A stretch of 64,000 nucleotides of DNA from Gammaproteobacteria bacterium (GTDB lineage: Bacteria; Pseudomonadota; Gammaproteobacteria; GCA-001735895), in the NCBI GenBank assembly GCA_050298595.1, contig JBNKUM010000101.1, positions 112,131-176,130 on the forward strand, given 5' to 3'. Numbering within the stretch: position 1 is the stretch's first letter; the number at the start of each line of letters is the position of its first letter. The notes under the pieces are model-generated. The model saw only the letters and a program-made list of their open reading frames with translations, ran no database searches and was not told the origin of the DNA. Both the position numbers and the translations under genes were made by a program. Shown in pieces: positions 3,269 through 14,744 of this stretch.

Positions 3269-3355
3269 GCCCGGGTGGCGAAATTGGTAGACGCAAGGGA
3301 CTTAAAATCCCTCGGTGGAAACACCGTGCCGGTTCGACTCCGGCCCCGGGCACCA
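3269..3355 (+). tRNA. tRNA-Leu (TAA)
   Basis: GCCCGGGTGGCGAAATTGGTAGAC...GACTTAAAATC, long variable arm, ...GGGCACCA, 87 nt. Confidence 0.97.
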
Positions 3356-3783
3356 TTTGAAATCAATGATTTATAGATTTTCCCTTCTTTTCTTATTTGA
3401 CTGATGAAAGTCAGTGTAGGCAGTTCAATTCTAAAGATTTATTAATTTTTAATACACTTCTTACCAAGATATTTTGTGTTCCCTAAAATTGTATTCATAT
3501 TTAAAAAAATATTTATAAGTAATTATCTTTAGACCATATATAAATCTTTACCTGAGATTTTAATAAAATTACTCGACGTATTCTTTTATTAAATTATCAA
3601 CCGGTTAAATAAAAAAATTATCAAGGAGGGGCAGTAACATGAATCAGTAAAATTCAACTGAAAAAATTTCTCCTCAGAAAAATTTGTGGGTAGTTTCTAG
3701 TACGAGTAAAGCTACAAGTGTATGGTACAGCGCGATTTGAGCAGCATAAAAGGTTCTAAATCCATAGGCTTTTCTGGTGGTTT

Positions 3784-4160
3784 CTCGTTCCCAAGCACTG
3801 TGTGGGAATGCATATAGCATCTGACGAGTTTGGATTTCACACGCCTTGGCTTTCCTTGCTCCGTAGCATCTTTCTAAAAGACGTGCGAGTCACTTCTTTC
3901 CAACAGCTGAAAGAAGTAACCAAGAAAGCTGCCCTACGCAATCCCTTATCTCGTCAAAAGTAGGGTCAAATCGCGGTCGGGTCAGACCCGTTCCCGACGC
4001 GGCTGTCTCTCAAATGGCATCCTTGCCATTTGACCCCGATTTGACCGTACTTTTACCGCGGGCTTGAAGGGAGAAAAAAGCGGAAAAACAAAATTGTCTG
4101 GAACAATATTGAACAGCTTCAACTGCCCCGAAGGGTGGAGGACAGGAAGTCCAGAATAAT
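3784..4160. repeat. Cluster of palindromic REP/MITE-like elements
   Basis: Hairpins TTCCCA..TGGGAA (3788-3808), GTCACTTCTTTC..GAAAGAAGTAAC (3889-3920), AAAAGTAGGGTCAAATCGCGGTC..GACCCCGATTTGACCGTACTTTT (about 3956-4054), ATTGT..ACAAT and GGAC..GTCC (4088-4160). Confidence 0.6.
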
Positions 4161-4393
4161 GACATCCCAATTAAGTGGCCTGTGGCTCCATGAAAGTTGA
4201 GCCAAACTCTTCACCCCTAATTTTTGATCAAACATCTTTTGAACTCTAAGCATGACCAGTTGATTGCTTACAAACTTTACCTTTTTGGAGAAAAGATTTT
4301 AATAGTAAAATTAACCGTTTAAGTAATTAAACAGTCCTGGTTTTAGATGATATTTTACTATAATCAATAACTTAGTTACGACCGACCCGGTTT

Positions 4394-5115
4394 AGTCGAA
4401 CGTCGAATGAAAAAAAGCACTGAATTTACTGGGGATCCCGGGCAGTTGTGAAAAAGCCAGAAAGACGATGAAAGAAGCTGGTGTTGCCGTTAAACACAGG
4501 ATGAAATACAAGGTCACCACGAACAGTAATCATAAGCAACTTGTTTTCGATAACCTGTTACAGCGAGACTATACCTCCGCCCAGGCGGATCAGGTCTATG
4601 CTGCAGATGTGACTTATATATGGACGCAGGACGGCTGGTTATACCGGGACGTTGTGATTGACCTGTTCTCGCGTAAAGTGGTGGGGTGGAGTATGAGTAG
4701 TCGAATGAAAGCACAGCTGATCTGTGATGCCCTGAAGATGGCAATATGGCGAAGACATCCAAAGCCTGGACTGATCCACCATTCTGATCAAGGCAGTCAG
4801 TATGCCAGTCATGAATTTAGAACACTGCTCCAGATGAATGGGATACGGTGTAGCATGAGACGAAAAGGAGACTGCTGGGACAATGCTGTAGTTGAAAGCA
4901 ACATTGGCACCTTAAAACAGAAACAGGTGCACTGGAGGAACTATCAAACCCGTCTCTAAGCTCAGCAGGATATATTGCAGTACATAGCCTTTTTTTATAA
5001 TGGTTGCCGGTTACATTCGACACTAAATTAAGTCAGTCCGATTGAATATGAAAGACAATTTAATGAAATGAAAAAAGTAGCTTAACTGAGTGTACAAAAA
5101 TGCTTGCCCACGTCA
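4394..5115 (+). pseudogene. IS3-family transposase orfB remnant with right end
   Basis: DVTYI...DLFSRKVVGW...HSDQGSQY...DNAVVES rve core; in-frame stops at 4957 and about 5029; 5' truncated; IR-like GTGTACAAAAATGCTTGCCCACGTCA ending at 5115. Confidence 0.88.
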
Positions 5116-5211
5116 CGGATCACTGGGTAAGAGAGCAATTGTTTAAGATGTTTTGATAGAAGGGCCGGAGCAGAAGAGATTTTAATTCCATAATGGTTGA
5201 GTTTTTGATGA

Positions 5212-5232
5212 GTCAAATGTAAGGCTGACCCG
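5212..5232 (-). repeat. Copy of the Y1-transposase end motif (right-end orientation)
   Basis: GTCAAATGTAAGGCTGACCCG is nearly the reverse complement of GGGGTCAGGCCTTACATTTGAC at 9376. Confidence 0.8.
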
Positions 5233-5594
5233 AATGTTACTAAGTTAAGGTGTACTTCTATCTCAAAATCAACAGATTAACCCAAATGTGGTACCTTTTA
5301 CACGCCAGGTTGCCACATACTAAATTTACTTAACTTAGTTGTCTTTCAAGGCTGATCTCGATTTTTATACAATTTTTGTTTATTGTTATACGAGTAGGGA
5401 GTTTAAAAAGGGGGCATTATAATTCATAAAGCAATTGTTTTTATTGCTCTATGCACCATAATACTGAAAATTTTTTCGCTACTTTTTGACAACTAGAGCA
5501 AAAAATGTAATAAATTGCTTCTACGGATATTTTGTTCGCTGTTGCTCTCTAATTTCTGTAGAGCGTGGTGTCATCCCCACATAGGAAAGTGAAA

Positions 5595-6140
5595 ATGAAT
5601 AAATTCTCTCTTACTGCTTTGATGATGCTTCTGCAGTCGTCAATTGCATTCGCAAAGGATTGCAAGATTCCATATTCTGATAATCCAGATGTTACCTACT
5701 CCATAAATCCAGCTGTTATCGATAAGTGGAATCCTGATTTGAGTTATGCAATTAATCCCGATGTCACCTATTCAATAAATCCAAATTTCACATATAAGTA
5801 TAATCCTGACGTAACTTTCACAATTAATCCAGACCAGACTGTCAAACTGAATCCATTTATTAGCAAGTGGAATGGATATAATGTTTGCACACCAAAAGGA
5901 GAGTTTGTTGGTGCTAGCATTATAGCTAATGAAGATGTTATGGTTTTTTATATCGGTACGAACTGGATTGGCAATTTCATAACCAATAAAAAGAGCGGGT
6001 ATAATTTTTTCAACCGGAAAAAGGAGTGGGAGGGATTTCTTGTGCCGACAAAATCTGCTGGATTTGCTTTTTTTAATCGTGAAAACAAATGGCTATTATC
6101 ATTGACAAAGAAAAAACTATGGGCTCAGACCTCACGATAG
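5595..6140 (+). CDS. Secreted hypothetical protein with 8-aa NPxxTxxI repeats
   Basis: Signal peptide MNKFSLTALMMLLQSSIAFA; RBS AGGAAAG; about 7 NP-initiated 8-aa repeats. Confidence 0.75.
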   Translation: MNKFSLTALMMLLQSSIAFAKDCKIPYSDNPDVTYSINPAVIDKWNPDLSYAINPDVTYSINPNFTYKYNPDVTFTINPDQTVKLNPFISKWNGYNVCTPKGEFVGASIIANEDVMVFYIGTNWIGNFITNKKSGYNFFNRKKEWEGFLVPTKSAGFAFFNRENKWLLSLTKKKLWAQTSR

Positions 6141-6350
6141 ACACCATATTTTCGATTTGTTGATTTAGTGAATTTTCCAGAGCCAGGGATAAAAAATGGT
6201 CTGATCTCAGGAATTTGTGTCCAGCATCTCTCTTGGCAATATGGCGGGCACTATAAATTGGAGCAGGTTAAGGGGGGGTGTAGCAATGCAACGATAAGTC
6301 GGGCCGAATATGCTTATGTAACTCAGATGTAAAATGTTGGGCCTAACTCC
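6121..6350 (+). mobile_element. Internally deleted (MITE-like) copy of the Y1 transposase element at 9376-10314
   Basis: 6121-6220 aligns to 9376-9475 and 6244-6350 aligns to 10204-10314; the middle of the gene is missing. Confidence 0.85.
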
Positions 6351-6545
6351 GAGGAACTAAAATCATTAAGATTATTTTTTTATCCAGGATTTGTAAACCC
6401 TGGCTTTGTTCCGGGCCTGACGAGACTATGATCGACGACAATTAATATCCTTACACACCTTCCATTTTTTGTGGTCCATTAATACATTTCCTTATTGAAA
6501 TATAGATTTCAAATGAATAGCTATGATTTTATTTTGGGTATGGTC

Positions 6546-6713
6546 GAGATGACTATGAATATCGTACGCTAAAAAGCTTATATGATTTTATTGTCTACGC
6601 GGTTTTGCTAATTGTAAGACAGCTGTATTTCATCTAAATTTAAGCGGTTGATATTATTCTTCGTGGTTGGAGTGTATATAATGGGGTCAAGTTTCAATTT
6701 TGAGGTGTCAAAT
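6546..6713 (+). repeat. ~170-bp imperfect direct repeat, copy 1 (copy 2 at 8674-8839)
   Basis: GAGATGACTATGA.TATCGTACGCTAAA.AGCTTATAT...TCTACGC.GTTTTGCTAATTGTAAGA..GCTGT...CATCTAAATTT is shared by both copies. Confidence 0.85.
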
Positions 6714-6898
6714 AATATTCAAACTCCGTGTGACTCTCTTTCGCTACTCAAGGGAGAGATAAGAGAATTTTATAATAAATATGCTCCCTTTACATATCAT
6801 GAGTGGGAATAAATAGAGAACAAGATGAAGCATATTAAGAATTTAGCGCAATTTAAGTATTACATTCTTCGCGCTGGACACATAATCACCTGTAAGGA

Positions 6899-7285
6899 GT
6901 GTATGCATTGAAATTATCACTACGCAGCATTGGTTTAGCTTCAGGTTTATTTTCTCTGCCATCGTTTTTTAATGAACACTATGCATTACCTGGCTACACA
7001 TGCGATGGAAATAACAATTATATCAAATTCCCATATTTTTTATATGTAAATGGTACTGAAATTTTACAAACAGATGATATTGATATTAAGGGCTACGAAT
7101 TGATCAACCCTTTTAAACTAGATAAAGTTGAAAAAAATCAAAATAAAAACACCAACTTTAATAAAAGAAAGCTTTATGGCGACGAGAAAGGAGATGTTGA
7201 ACTAAGCTCTTATCTCTTTGAAGGTGATTGCCACGGTAGTAGTTGTTCATTACAAGGGACCTTACATTCAACGCTAACAAGTTGA
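6899..7285 (+). pseudogene. Degraded hypothetical gene
   Basis: 128-aa ORF without a good start; coding-like sequence with stops upstream. Confidence 0.35.
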
Positions 7286-7339
7286 CAAAAAGTGCAATGG
7301 TAAAAAAATCACATAGTGAGTTTCTGTATGAGTGATAAC

Positions 7340-7410
7340 GCATCTGAAAAAAACTGCATCGTAACAAATTTTACTGCGCAATATTTTTCCACTGAGTTGG
7401 GTGGTCAAGC
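7340..7410 (+). repeat. Degenerate integron attC-like site
   Basis: AACT(G)CA ... TGAGTT pairing with one extra G, inner stem, ends TGAGTTGGGTGGTCA; the R boxes are decayed. Confidence 0.45.
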
Positions 7411-7603
7411 AGTAGAAAAATTAAAGTGAACTTTTAAGGGTAATAAATGGATAATAATTCTCTACAAAATGTGATCCTACTTGAATATTCTTATTGTTAT
7501 GCTTAAAAAAGTCGGTTTTGTACAGGTAGAAGCGCATCGTGAATCTTGTTGCTTTTTAGATTTTAATTTTTCTACACCCTGATTATGTTCACAAAATTGA
7601 TGT

Positions 7604-8104
7604 ATGGAAATGATAAAGAAAAGTATTGATAGTTACTTATTTCGCGCCAGAAAATCCGGAACGTGTATTAATAAGCAAGACCTCGAGTTACTTAATTTCA
7701 AACTAAATGGGTTAATTCCAGATTGGTATGCTGAAGCAGTGACACAGCTCCCTATTTCCGGAATTGAAGTGGGTTGGCTAGCTTTCCCAGAAGAAGTAGA
7801 TTTTGATGGAATTGAGTGGGTTACTCTTCTAGATGCCAAGTTATTAAGTGAGTGCAATCTAGATAGTTACCTGGGGAATTTACTCCGCCCACTGGGTTAT
7901 TTTTCATTTGGTTACGGCTCATCGTGGTCAGGAAATTGTTTTGTTTTTAAACCAGAAGAAGGTAACGATCCACCTGTATATGAGGTCTGGCATGACGCTG
8001 CACGTAACTCGGACGAAATGTTAAACGCAATCGAAAATAAAAAAGGCGTGAAATTGGTTTCTGAATCATTCAGTAGTTTCTTTAATGATGCTATTTGTGA
8101 ATAA
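7604..8104 (+). CDS. SMI1/KNR4 (SUKH) family protein
   Basis: LNGLIPDWY...FSFGYGSSWSGNCFVF...DPPVYEVWHD...LVSESFSSFF matches the SUKH pattern. Confidence 0.7.
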   Translation: MEMIKKSIDSYLFRARKSGTCINKQDLELLNFKLNGLIPDWYAEAVTQLPISGIEVGWLAFPEEVDFDGIEWVTLLDAKLLSECNLDSYLGNLLRPLGYFSFGYGSSWSGNCFVFKPEEGNDPPVYEVWHDAARNSDEMLNAIENKKGVKLVSESFSSFFNDAICE

Positions 8105-8492
8105 AGAACATTAAAATAAGGGTGTGTCCTGCGCCTGTTGCGACCTATCCTATTGTTGAACAAGCTGTTTGTGATGGTTGATAGGCGATATAAAGGAAAA
8201 ATATTTTCGAAACTATGGAGTCAGAATTTACATTATACGTCCCTGGTCGGTAGCAGATAATGAGAGTGAAAAGCTAATTAAGTGTGTCCGTATGTGAAAC
8301 CCAATATTTGAATTCCTATTAGATTGTGTTGACTAACTGGGAAGAGCTTTCGTCAGTGTGCTGGCTGCCAGGGATACTTTCTTCCTTGAACTAAAAATTT
8401 CGACTGTTAGACGGACTCTGGTTTTTGAACAGGTTGAGAAGGTCTCTATGAAATTCACCTTTAGTAATATTCATACAGGTGATTATTTTTTT

Positions 8493-8650
8493 GGTTCTTC
8501 GTAAAACAGTGTAAAAACCAAGTGAAATATAGACAATACTCCAATCCAGATAATTATATTTGACCTATGGAAATAGAAGAGCATTCCAGCCAGCTTTTAG
8601 GCATCAATACGCCCTGGGAGATCAGTCAGGTTGAACTCAATTTCATGGCT
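8493..8650 (+). pseudogene. ISL3-family left end and transposase N-terminal fragment
   Basis: IR-like GGTTCTTCGTAAAACAGTGT; MEIEEHSSQLLGINTPWEISQVELN from 8567 resembles the ISL3 Tnp N-terminus (QLLGL..PW.V..VEL). Confidence 0.6.
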
Positions 8651-8673
8651 ATTGTTTTCTTTGGAGTATAGTG

Positions 8674-8839
8674 GAGATGACTATGAGTATCGTACGCTAA
8701 ATAGCTTATATATTTTTTTATCTACGCTGTTTTGCTAATTGTAAGATGGCTGTTAATCATCTAAATTTTAACTCTGAATATTATACTTCTTAGTGGTGGT
8801 TCAAATAATACGGCAAGTTACTTTTTCGTGATGTCAAAT
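8674..8839 (+). repeat. ~170-bp imperfect direct repeat, copy 2
   Basis: Aligns to 6546-6713; followed by TGACCTGACCCC at about 8856-8867. Confidence 0.85.
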
Positions 8840-9020
8840 CTAAGTCATGACACTATGACCTGACCCCGTTAATTTTTCCTCGTTTGAAGTGATAGAAAGA
8901 AACAATATATTATGAGATCGCGTATATAAGGCTTCTGTTTCAAATCAGAAGCAATATTACAGCAATATATTTTTTGTTTTTAAAAGTTAAGCTTTGGATT
9001 AGAAGAGAATAGCAAACCCA

Positions 9021-9344
9021 ATGACACGGATAATAATTAGTCTATTATGTGTATCAATTTTTAGTGGCTGCACATCCAGTAATGGTAAACCGATCACCGG
9101 TAAGGAGTTATATGGATTCTATTGTGCTGGCTGTCATATGGAAAGCGGGGCTGGCCATTTTTTACGGGGTATCCCGCCGTTAACTCAAAACAAAATTCTC
9201 AATCCAACACCGCTTCAACCTTCTCAGCTCAGGCGTAAGCTCAAAACTAGTCCAAGCCATAATAGGACAATACCGCCCTTTGGCAACATCAACGATGAGC
9301 AGGAAAGATTGATCTTGCGGTATATACAATCGCTGTCCGAGTGA
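9021..9344 (+). CDS. Monoheme c-type cytochrome lipoprotein
   Basis: Lipobox FSGC; heme-binding motif CAGCH. Confidence 0.8.
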   Translation: MTRIIISLLCVSIFSGCTSSNGKPITGKELYGFYCAGCHMESGAGHFLRGIPPLTQNKILNPTPLQPSQLRRKLKTSPSHNRTIPPFGNINDEQERLILRYIQSLSE

Positions 9345-9392
9345 TATTTTCCCCTGGTTTTTCCTGACTAACTCAGGGGTCAGGCCTTACAT

Positions 9393-9421
9393 TTGACACC
9401 AGGTTTTCGATTTGGTAATTT
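9393..9421 (+). promoter_or_regulatory. sigma70 promoter of the Y1 transposase, with the -35 box inside the left end repeat
   Basis: TTGACA (9393-9398), 17 bp, TAATTT (9416-9421) preceded by TG. Confidence 0.6.
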
Positions 9422-9451
9422 TCTGAATTTTCCAGGTCAGGGGGCAAGAAA

Positions 9452-10297
9452 ATGGCCAGACCTCTACGAATTGAGTTTGCGGGGGCCTTATACCACATCA
9501 CATCTCACGGCAATGCACAGGGCGAGATTTTCCTGAATAATGCTGATCGGATAAAGTTTCTTGATATATTAAGTCAAGCTGTTATTCGATATGACTGGTA
9601 CTGTCATGCCTATTGCCTGATGGATAATCATTATCACCTTCTGATTGAAACCGGCACACCAACACTGTCCAAAGGAATGAAATATCTCAATGGCTCCTAC
9701 ACGCAGTCTTTTAACCGGCTGCATCAACTCTTTGGGCATGTTTTTCAGGGTCGTTATAAAGCCATACTTGTTGACAAAGAAAGCTATCTACTGGAATTGT
9801 CGCGCTACATCGTCCTTAATCCAGTCAGGGCTCTGATGGTGCGCAGTGCAAAAGAATGGCGCTGGAGTAGTTATCGAGCAACAGCAGGCCAGACTGAAGC
9901 TCATCCCTGTTTAACGATTGACTTGGTATTGTCCCTTTTGGGGAAAAGACGCAGAAAAGCACAGGAGAACTATAGGGCTTTTGTTGTAGAAGGCCGCAAT
10001 CAACCCTCTCCCTGGGAAAGACTTAAGAATCAAATCTATTTAGGTAGTGATCAATTTGTAGAAGATGTGCAGAGTAAGTTGGATCCAGATCAATCACTCA
10101 AGGATATTCCCAGAAAACAGAAACGGGCGGCACAGCGACCACTTAGCGATTACGCCAAGAAGGGTGTTGAGAGAAATTCAGCGATGGCACAAGCCTACCT
10201 TAGCGGGTACTACACATTGGAGCAGGTAGGTGAGTATTTTGGGTGCAGCTATGCAACGGTAAGTCGCGCTGTAAAAGCTTTTGAGACTCAAATGTGA
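9452..10297 (+). CDS. REP-associated tyrosine transposase (RAYT)-like Y1_Tnp protein with C-terminal HTH
   Basis: MARPLRIEF..YHIT, HUH motif MDNHYHLL, GHVFQGRYKA, catalytic Tyr in RYIVLNPVRA, WRWSSY, C-terminal HTH YTLEQVGEYFGCSYATVSRAVK. Confidence 0.9.
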   Translation: MARPLRIEFAGALYHITSHGNAQGEIFLNNADRIKFLDILSQAVIRYDWYCHAYCLMDNHYHLLIETGTPTLSKGMKYLNGSYTQSFNRLHQLFGHVFQGRYKAILVDKESYLLELSRYIVLNPVRALMVRSAKEWRWSSYRATAGQTEAHPCLTIDLVLSLLGKRRRKAQENYRAFVVEGRNQPSPWERLKNQIYLGSDQFVEDVQSKLDPDQSLKDIPRKQKRAAQRPLSDYAKKGVERNSAMAQAYLSGYYTLEQVGEYFGCSYATVSRAVKAFETQM

Positions 10298-10741
10298 AAT
10301 GTAAGGATGACCCTGAAGCTCGCAAAAGCCTGTTCTTAGAGTCCATTTGCTCAGCCAGAAAATCAAGGAAGGGGGCCGCCGGGAAGATGCTGTTCGTTCT
10401 TGACCGAATCCTACGGTGACTGATAGGTTTTAGGATAAGGAGCCGATATATCGTCTCAGAACTAAGTTAGCCACTAATTCTAGAGATTTCCCGACTAAGA
10501 AAGTAATTATTTCATGAATTTCACGTTTTTTTCACGAAATGGAATTAGAATAATTTCAGGGATGAGAAAGAGCCGATCTCTTCGGTTCTTAATAAAAAAC
10601 CACATTTGTTGAGTATTATGGATAGATGTGCGGCATTATACCTACAAGCATATAATTGTCTTCCCACATCCCTTATAACTACTTAACAAATATCCAGGAT
10701 GAATTGACAACAGTTTAGTTACAACCGAAAGGGTGTATTTT

Positions 10742-11020
10742 ATGAGTAGTATTGTATTAGCAGTTATATCCTTAAGCCTTGCCTTTGTTTTAATGGTCAT
10801 GTGGATCCGGGCTCGGAGAGCTGCGCTTCGAGCTGAAGTTGTGGCATACGGGTTGCGTGCTCAGGATGACAGAGATGAAGATACCAAAACTAATCTGATC
10901 AACAGGCATAAAGAATATAATGTGGCTATCAGTAAGCTGGATCAGATGGGACAGATTAAGCGTGATAAGTGGGGCCATTGGGTCTGGACAGAATCGGGGC
11001 AGCAATTGGGCCAGGGATGA
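10742..11020 (+). CDS. Small single-TM hypothetical protein, paralog 1
   Basis: N-terminal TM helix; 53/92 gapless identity (hand count) to 14466-14744. Confidence 0.8.
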   Translation: MSSIVLAVISLSLAFVLMVMWIRARRAALRAEVVAYGLRAQDDRDEDTKTNLINRHKEYNVAISKLDQMGQIKRDKWGHWVWTESGQQLGQG

Positions 11021-14465: not shown

Positions 14466-14744
14466 ATGGGTGGGTTTATTGTGGCGATTATTTCTTCTGC
14501 CTTTGCAATTGTCTTTTTGGTAATGTGGCTTCGTGCTCGGAAAGCAGTTAGTGAAGCCGAAGTTGTTGCCTATGGCTTACGATCCCAGGACGATAGTGAT
14601 GAAAACACTAAAACTAGCCTTTCAATAATGGAAGCAGAATATGATGCTGCGATTGACAAGCTCAGCGAGATGGGTGAAATCAAGCGCGATGAATGGGGGC
14701 GCTGGGTGTGGACAAAAACTGGACAACCCTTAGGTGAAGACTAA
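14466..14744 (+). CDS. Small single-TM hypothetical protein, paralog 2
   Basis: Paralog of 10742-11020 (AEVVAYGLR.QDD, IKRD.WG.WVWT). Confidence 0.8.
   Translation: MGGFIVAIISSAFAIVFLVMWLRARKAVSEAEVVAYGLRSQDDSDENTKTSLSIMEAEYDAAIDKLSEMGEIKRDEWGRWVWTKTGQPLGED

Follow-up and report, generated by a model that had tools for sequence, protein, structure and literature searches.

The window analysed here is a stretch of 64,000 nucleotides from a gammaproteobacterial genome (assembly GCA_050298595.1, contig JBNKUM010000101.1, positions 112,131 to 176,130), in which a gene for a Y1 transposase of the HUH type lies between short inverted repeats, and diverged copies of these repeats recur through the preceding 5 kb among small, unrelated genes. 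A first-pass annotation had proposed for this locus a distinct class of Y1 element whose end sites capture and array passenger genes in the manner of an integron. Judged by sequence, the gene with its ends is a known element, a TIRtron with its transposase TIRYT (TnpA-Y1 subclass 2.1.2, RAYT Group 1), and on balance we read its surroundings as a tRNA-Leu island holding TIRtron ends of considerable age, now eroded, whose clustering would go back to local nicking and joining by TIRYT enzymes and not to a precise cassette recombinase. The gene and the terminal inverted repeats (TIRs) of the window are listed below, with the strand where one is assigned; scores refer to an end matrix built from 85 gene-flanking ends (48 distinct) of 54 related loci, the window excluded and one indel permitted. 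G000 denotes the host genome of the window, G001 (its sister genome), G004, G010, G011 and G012 are congeners, and L-numbers designate related loci.

9452-10297, plus strand: TIRYT gene (TnpA-Y1 subclass 2.1.2), 281 aa with NHYH, FQ, YIVLNP and SS, a C-terminal helix-turn-helix (HTH) and the substitution R19H
9376-9398, plus strand: left TIR, consensus-perfect (score 39.6), giving the -35 of the TIRYT promoter
10293-10314: right TIR with a 1-nt deletion, over the TIRYT stop codon (score 24.5)
5211-5232: right-type TIR with a 1-nt deletion (score 27.6)
5340-5360: decayed right-type TIR ahead of the promoter of the NP gene (score below 0); homology to G001:C3 begins inside it
6121-6350, plus strand: internally deleted TIRtron consisting of a left end (6121-6143), leader, 3' end of the coding sequence and right end (6328-6350)
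6683-6727: left-right (L-R) TIR dimer closing a copy of the dispersed repeat X, with L at 6683-6705 and a decayed R at 6706-6727
8217-8239: diverged solo left TIR (score 6.3), with the linker AAACTAT in common with 6121
8810-8868: L-R dimer plus extra tip, with a decayed L at 8810-8831, R at 8832-8854 (score 19.7) and a tip copy CCTGACCCC ending at 8867

In a profile search the protein encoded at 9452-10297 matches PF01797 (E 2e-10), with additional weak matches to HTH_28 and HTH_23, and it carries NH[YF]H, FQ, Y..LNP and SS together with the C-terminal HTH, the combination given for subclass 2.1.2 and RAYT Group 1 in motif Table 1 of PMC6006769. At 9376, GGGGTCAG fits GGGGWSAS, and its reverse complement stands at 10293-10314 with one deletion. 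A Y1 HUH enzyme, GGGGWSAS TIRs around its gene and TIRs dispersed through G000 as singles, dimers and groups are also what marks the TIRtrons: according to the accessible sections of these papers, TIRtron and TIRYT were named for RAYT-like genes between GGGGWSAS TIRs, with TIR dimers and clusters (Di Nocera, De Gregorio, Rocco 2013, PMC3733652), TIRtrons were equated with TnpA-Y1 subclass 2.1 (Quentin et al. 2018, PMC6006769), and subclass 2.1 corresponds to RAYT Group 1, the most IS-like RAYT group (Bertels et al. 2017, PMC5581495). The proposal of a distinct element class is thus superseded by descriptions from 2013 and 2018, and the statement that the motif belongs to neither known type fails because the ends match the published TIR. 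Two other assignments were set aside. A classical RAYT/REPtron has hairpin repetitive extragenic palindromes (REPs) with a GT[AG]G foot, whereas here the ends lack GTAG, a single TIR does not fold (z-scores -0.95 and 0.40), and the protein reaches 66 bits with the REP-transposase profile NF047646, below its cut-off of 80. For an IS200/IS605 element a short TnpA with Y...Q, subterminal hairpins and no TIRs are expected, whereas here there are 281 aa, Y..LNP and TIRs.

The first-pass annotation had also suspected that the enzyme is decaying. The underlying substitution was confirmed, residue 19 being R in 13 of 14 aligned TIRYT proteins and H in the window copy, but H60-Y61-H62 (HuH) and Y119 are intact in the window protein, and dN/dS between the window gene and its closest relative, the G001 copy, is about 0.13, a ratio that marks purifying selection on TIRYT. 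G000 has no second full-length gene of this subfamily. An AlphaFold model of TIRYT was weak (pLDDT 62) and was left out of any fold search, and a PDB sequence search gave weak HTH matches and 4ER8 at E 0.24, with nothing stronger. Across 14 proteins the recognition helix of the HTH (alignment A1, residues 262-275) appears to change with the inner TIR type: SYATVSRAV goes with CCTTACATTTGACA, HYSRISKIV with TCTTGCCTTTTGCC and HYMTVSRAV with TTCTAACATTAATAC. This covariation suggests direct readout of the TIR by the HTH, whereas PMC6006769, in its accessible part, leaves the function open and doubts that the HTH reads the TIR.

Within 3400-10400 of the window six copies of the end score at least 14 (5211R, 6121L, 6328R, 8832R, 9376L and 10293R), compared with a mean of 0.1 and a maximum of 2 in 100 first-order shuffles and with a single copy in the remaining 57 kb of the window. 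The coordinates given by the first-pass annotation check out, inverted repeats of 23 and 22 bp bracketing 9452-10297; of the recurring copies that it had listed, those at 5211, 6121, 6328 and 8832 are strong, while those at 6683 (L scoring only 7.9), 8217 and 5340 are weak by score but supported by alignment. The dimer at 6683-6727 (fold z -2.0/-2.6) aligns with better-preserved X-L-R dimers of G000 and G001, and at G001:C3 a clean right end (score 19.4), aligned with window position 5340, stands ahead of the same NP gene. A contig of run X1 spans the dimer and tip at 8810-8868 without differences. The left end overlaps the -35 of the TIRYT promoter, a layout in the style of autoregulation, and the earlier suggestion that the left repeat supplies this box is borne out by relatives: of 64 distinct left ends, 39 have TAnnnT 17 nt past TTGACA, against none of 38 right ends; a consensus promoter scan omits the TIRYT promoter because the -10 of the window, TAATTT, is weak. 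A further motif, CCYGGTTTT, had been taken to be related to the ends and was rejected: its 3 copies give p ~0.01 against shuffles, but the rate in the genome is 0.75 per 7 kb, and the stretch 4263-4395 belongs to another repeat family.

The deleted element at 6121-6350 matches both ends of the intact element at 74% and is 70% alike over the aligned 3' part; the upstream copies in general are about 70% like the intact element and therefore old. Over the 3' part, similarity among the G000 remnants of this subfamily is 54-79%, and those at G000:C30 and C90 are old and lie at orthologous sites in congeners, so that TIRtron activity in the genus is itself old. Genome-wide, G000 has 51 end matches scoring at least 17, compared with 7 in a shuffled genome.

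The ends are embedded in an island together with four passenger genes and other repeats, as follows.

3269-3355, plus strand: tRNA-Leu(TAA), left border of the island, in a Gly-Cys-Leu cluster after uvrC-pgsA
4401-5115, plus strand: remnant of an IS3-family insertion sequence, a separate element; open reading frame (ORF) 4468-4959 is over the cut-off of NF033516; 88% to G001:C225
5595-6140, plus strand: gene for an NP-repeat secreted protein, native 3' end replaced by linker and left TIR
6370-6682: repeat X copy 1, the promoter region and 5' stub of a NarL/LuxR-type response regulator gene (minus strand)
6899-7285, plus strand: 128-aa ORFan, with no relative besides itself among 12 candidates and no Pfam or PADLOC match
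7604-8104, plus strand: gene for a SUKH/SMI1-KNR4-like protein (PF09346, E 1e-3, below cut-off)
8637-8809: repeat X copy 2, preceded by another dispersed repeat (8485-8640)
9021-9344, plus strand: gene for a cytochrome c lipoprotein (PF13442, PF00034) with its own promoter region and TIR-free homologues in G010 and G011

Synteny of the left flank with G001, G004 and G010 ends at about 3357 and that of the right flank resumes at about 10503, placing the island end at about 10500; in G004 the same flanks enclose different genes and no TIR, and the contents of G001 and G010 differ again. GC content is 38% in 5116-10314 versus 42-46% in the flanks. The order has a single polarity, running from the IS3 remnant through R, R, NP gene, deleted element, X, L-R dimer, ORFan, SUKH-like gene, solo L, another repeat, X, L-R dimer with tip and cytochrome c lipoprotein to L-TIRYT-R, and the four passenger genes are co-oriented, with leaders of 150-300 bp. 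Two junctions lie at ends. The native NP 3' end and its downstream DNA are common to G000:C107 and G001:C3; the window has a short linker and L6121 in their place, and the native downstream DNA does not resume beyond the deleted element. Homology upstream of the cytochrome c gene ends 10-20 bp past R8868, the G010 and G011 copies being alike somewhat further upstream. The sister genome G001 has, at two loci outside the island, an X-L-R unit followed by the NP gene in one case and by a SUKH copy in the other; of two 84% SUKH copies in G001:C72, the first stands directly after the unit. To this extent, two junctions and a shared end in front of NP and SUKH in the sister genome, the view that passengers are bounded and rearranged by the ends is partly supported.

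Repeat X, for which G000:C85 286293-287139 holds the intact source gene, has 24 matches in G000, 31 in G001, 1 in G012 and 0 in 11 other congeners. Copies of a dispersed repeat span 6509-6713 and 8637-8839; these, and the fact that 6121-6350 is a single element with an internal deletion, had escaped the first-pass annotation. About 8 X copies end in the same L-R dimer, their mutual similarity being mostly lost at the R end, and a TIRYT-R-X arrangement occurs in the window, at G000:C56 and at G001:C6. The repeat holds a doubled TACGCT-N5-GCT motif; a structured RNA or hairpin element as its core was rejected, as it shows no fold (z about 0).

The 54 related loci come from several proteobacterial genera; the same ends flank most of them and are conserved across genera. 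Additional Y1 copies within 10 kb, found in 22 of the 54 loci, lie on the same strand in 32 cases and on the opposite strand in 3. The orientation of IS200/IS605 elements is set by the lagging-strand template. Here a replication-strand rule as the cause of the polarity is unsupported, the G-rich strand carrying the gene at 22 of 38 loci (p 0.42, the skew over 10-20 kb being noisy); the count in G000 is 11 of 13 on the G-rich strand versus a gene baseline of 63% (p 0.08, likewise with noisy skew). Among 401 sampled genomes of the class, 26 contain the pattern, mostly in 1-5 copies.

The window itself is eroded and ambiguous, and the stronger case is in Undibacterium. There the end was found in 19 of 61 sampled genomes, and in four genomes a whole-genome pattern scan places near-perfect ends at one locus (10/10, 5/5, 5/6 and 3/4). 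In about 10 species a gdh-linked locus shows ends and modules of 1-3 genes in alternation, the cargo comprising toxin-antitoxin pairs, regulators, hydrolases, NucS-like proteins and unknowns. A second Undibacterium array locus emerges with a looser matrix, and comparison of the two revealed no passenger module in common except IS110. Of 61 inter-element modules in 14 loci, 33 are shared and 28 unique, with one inverted, and at least 6 match nearly tip to tip amid new neighbours (Bro-N, LysR trio, CcdAB, Phd/ParE, hydrolase, tail-tube). A count of 107/222 edges was inflated by masking and was not used as a test.

Tip-spanning duplications, in which flank bases and the start of the TIR are repeated outside, occur at 42 of 161 strong ends versus 13 of 2160 random positions. 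A closer examination of 61 loci gave 50 ends with repeats of this kind out of 175; of the 36 short ones, 27 fit the junction GGGGTCA|G, which corresponds to C^TGACCCC on the opposite strand and places the inner junction at position 7|8. One and the same passenger end is joined to differing linkers or TIR subfamilies in L046/L048, L030/L045 and L050/L204, which argues for illegitimate joining and not for crossover in the repeat. Rearrangement junctions fall at the ends or a few bases outside them. From the junction pattern, and by analogy with the E. coli enzyme, C^TGACCCC is the predicted cut site: TnpA-REP cuts at C^T, including iREP-I TGCC^TGA, more than 400 nt from the REP, and its strand transfer has been proposed to amplify bacterial interspersed mosaic elements in tandem (Ton-Hoang et al. 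2012, PMC3333891, accessible sections).

In the process that we favour for the window, TIRYT would bind an end, probably via its C-terminal HTH on the inner part of the TIR as suggested by analogy with E. coli TnpA-REP, nick single-stranded DNA at C^TGACCCC within the end and at loosely chosen outside sites, and then join both. As a consequence of such cuts an incoming unit would bring a short linker, sometimes a longer flank, and would come to lie at an end already present or next to it. Recurrence of this process would produce half-elements, duplicated tips, L-R dimers and arrays of one polarity; neighbouring promoter-bearing genes could be truncated, transduced or reordered in the process, and RecA acting between direct repeats would probably add shuffling. 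In the window this process looks largely inactive now. A wider claim, which we advance tentatively and would not yet back, is that TIRtrons constitute an HUH-based gene-accretion system, in which gene modules with their own promoters build up at one locus into a polarised array, and enter it, leave it or change order from strain to strain. TIRYT would then nick C^TGACCCC in a resident end, to which DNA loosely cut on the far side of another end would be joined; the window would be an eroded example and the gdh-linked Undibacterium locus a live one.

Several observations weigh against array-building by the local enzyme. Copies in the island are only about 70% identical to the element of the adjacent gene, the supposed builder, and the 51 strong matches of G000 are only moderately clustered (17 versus 6.8 expected, p 0.004), while six near-perfect ends of genome G042 are spread over 4 loci. 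Many X copies carry no TIR, and X must therefore also have spread by other means. The SUKH boundaries in the window fall elsewhere than at ends, the 3' boundary of the cytochrome c gene is uninformative, and some stubs that seemed non-self belong to another TIR subfamily. In runs X1, X2, X5 and X6 (four of eight listed), searched as assembled contigs from which rare variants are dropped, no joint indicating excision was seen at an end: the main population of two runs has no junction at an end, and a join back to 9376 occurs in a single divergent contig, of depth 2.1. Searches with five G000 and two Methylotuvimicrobium regions yielded no clean pair of filled and empty sites. Ends are often found at contig ends, one duplication adjoins Ns, and GGC beside an inverted repeat triggers Illumina errors; since the ends break assemblies, some self-duplications may be artefacts. 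Diverged duplications at G000 C90 and C62 and at window 8855-8867, the last covered by run X1 without differences, indicate that at least some tip duplications are real.

An alternative that we consider unlikely, though one to be taken seriously, is ordinary debris: TIRtrons and miniatures would have inserted many times over, independently and preferentially just after stop codons, in a permissive tRNA island, passengers would have come by other routes, and RecA and deletions would have reshaped the result. The age of the copies in the genus and their partly orthologous positions across species agree with this, as do the IS3 remnant and other repeats of the island and the searches for circles and empty sites, neither of which were found. 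Insertion-site selection also predicts what is seen in related loci, where gene 3' ends lie near TIRs in either orientation (medians 33 and 55 bp) and 5' ends about 115-155 bp away. Debris would not, however, readily explain why near-perfect ends are mostly confined to a single locus in Undibacterium, why the polarity is 32:3 with no clear replication-strand rule, why the inner junction is fixed, why passenger ends are joined to differing linkers, or why the NP 3' end is replaced and not merely interrupted.

Closer to the original proposal, and improbable in our judgement, is an integron-like system in which TIR dimers act as attC, R-gene-L circles are cut out by TIRYT and put back at a primary site, and the array is retained by the host as an adaptive device. 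It draws on the alternation of ends with modules of varied cargo at the gdh-linked locus, on the strong folding of 94-bp L-R dimers (z -6) and on the purifying selection on TIRYT. Passengers, however, keep their promoters, with a median of about 155 bp from R to the start codon, and occur in both orientations (34 plus versus 18 minus genes before L), linkers and junctions vary, many LL and RR neighbours and transposase fragments are present in related loci, assembled contigs show no circle, and most related loci are a single element among housekeeping genes. What survives of the integron-like array is the polarised, site-restricted arrangement in relatives with tip-to-tip modules; the circle, the clean empty site and an attC or intI in the island were all missing from the searches described here.

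We consider it very improbable that a true integron array eroded and was later invaded by TIRtrons whose TIRs overwrote attC sites: among metagenomic NP homologues, at least 2 of 10 loci have the gene as an attC cassette (L185 and L187, with TIR-type repeats also bordering the array in L185), and three IntI matches over cut-off are present in G000, but these are on C89, C75 and C99 and none is inside the island, an attC heuristic of limited sensitivity (attC recovered in 3 of 5 control loci) found none in window 3300-10600, the NP gene in this genus has a long upstream region of its own and no attC-like pair, and the cytochrome c gene is a TIR-free resident in congeners. Given the NP cassettes and the IntI genes of G000, some cargo may have entered by integrons first.

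Integrons, with IntI, attI and attC, are one-locus arrays of unrelated variable modules between palindromic units. The arrays described here resemble them in occupying one locus, in their variable unrelated modules and in their palindromic separators; they differ in having an HUH enzyme and not a tyrosine recombinase, no attC, imprecise junctions and many enzyme fragments within the array, and their passengers have promoters of their own and lie in both orientations, whereas integron cassettes are mostly promoterless and co-oriented. With E. coli TnpA-REP (PMC3333891, as far as its accessible text extends) the locus would share HUH nicking of single-stranded DNA at C^T, the predicted CC^TGAC resembling TGCC^TGA; there REPs are GTAG hairpins with short linkers, whereas here a single TIR is unfolded and TIRs flank genes of 0.3-5 kb. 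The TIRtrons of PMC3733652 likewise have a Y1 gene within GGGGWSAS TIRs that can overlap the gene ends, and TIR singles, dimers and clusters, but the accessible sections of that paper report no passenger modules, single-locus polarised arrays, linker junctions, cut site or biochemistry. Subclass 2.1.2 and RAYT Group 1, in the available parts of PMC6006769 and PMC5581495, agree with the window in NH[YF]H, FQ, Y..LNP, SS, the HTH_23/28 tail and the absence of GTAG REPs. Group 1 tnpA-REP genes near prochlorosin genes (bioRxiv 10.1101/2020.03.09.984088) are of the same subclass, with fragments amid an expanding gene set, but no TIRs were found there; a diversifying role was proposed in that study, and the causal claim was later withdrawn by its authors. 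In the open-access literature we found no paper on TIRtron arrays, gene capture or such a cut site; by sequence comparison the element is known, and local array-building by it is apparently undescribed.

No RAYT group is larger or more widespread than Group 1 (subclass 2.1), whose role is open in the accessible part of the literature. The present analysis offers specifics in the form of a 23-bp end as substrate, a predicted cut at C^TGACCCC, a predicted product of linker plus end at a resident end, and arrays in culturable Undibacterium. If the ends do accrete genes, they would add a further route to strain-variable gene arrays besides integrons and pdif modules, one missed by attC-based annotation; such a system would be a counterpart of integrons that works by single-strand chemistry, and the largest RAYT group would have a function. 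If they do not, the window would be ordinary mobile-element debris of a described family.

Some further observations concern the TIRs and the island contents. Other TIR subfamilies (inner GTCTAGCTTTTAGC, GTCTTGTCTTTTGCC and GTCTTTGATTTATGA) are locally clustered in G000, at C78 50582-61988, C94 190626-199571, C23 and C21. A second repeat type starting GGGGTCACCCATTAG lies 35-90 bp outside the left TIRs in L011, L017, L032, L045 and L052, from several genera, and a 47-nt flank of L011, L032 and L045 that had appeared to be non-self was set aside as probably this second TIR subfamily. An IS110-family element (PF01548, PF02371) abuts the TIR at one identical point, replacing the GGGG before TCAGG, at L019:9925, L027:1395 and L207:5546 (Undibacterium) and at L024:3278 (Nitrosomonas), and is a candidate TIR-targeting IS110; the right TIRs of two Methylotuvimicrobium copies (L035:10847, L044:10839) are interrupted by other inserts. 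TIRs may be targets for several elements. The attC array at L185 that contains an NP-repeat gene is bordered by a TIR dimer with tip duplications (L185:3147-3290). The NP-repeat family comprises 24 matches including the window protein and has no Pfam family; its members have an invariant C..C and a repeated NP[DN]VT[YF]SINP (window 5681-5833). PADLOC gave no match among five island proteins, an Rfam scan placed tRNAs alone over threshold, a plasmid search returned 2 records only at E<=1e-30, and a viral contig search gave no match. Five further dispersed repeat families lie in the island (3800-4200, 4263-4395, 7383-7588, 8109-8205 and 8485-8640), each with copies elsewhere in G000, and a 23-bp inverted repeat is contained in 3956-4054. 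Beyond the island, paralogous small membrane-protein genes at 10733-11020 and 14466-14744 flank a methyltransferase-dapA-like block that is conserved in congeners.

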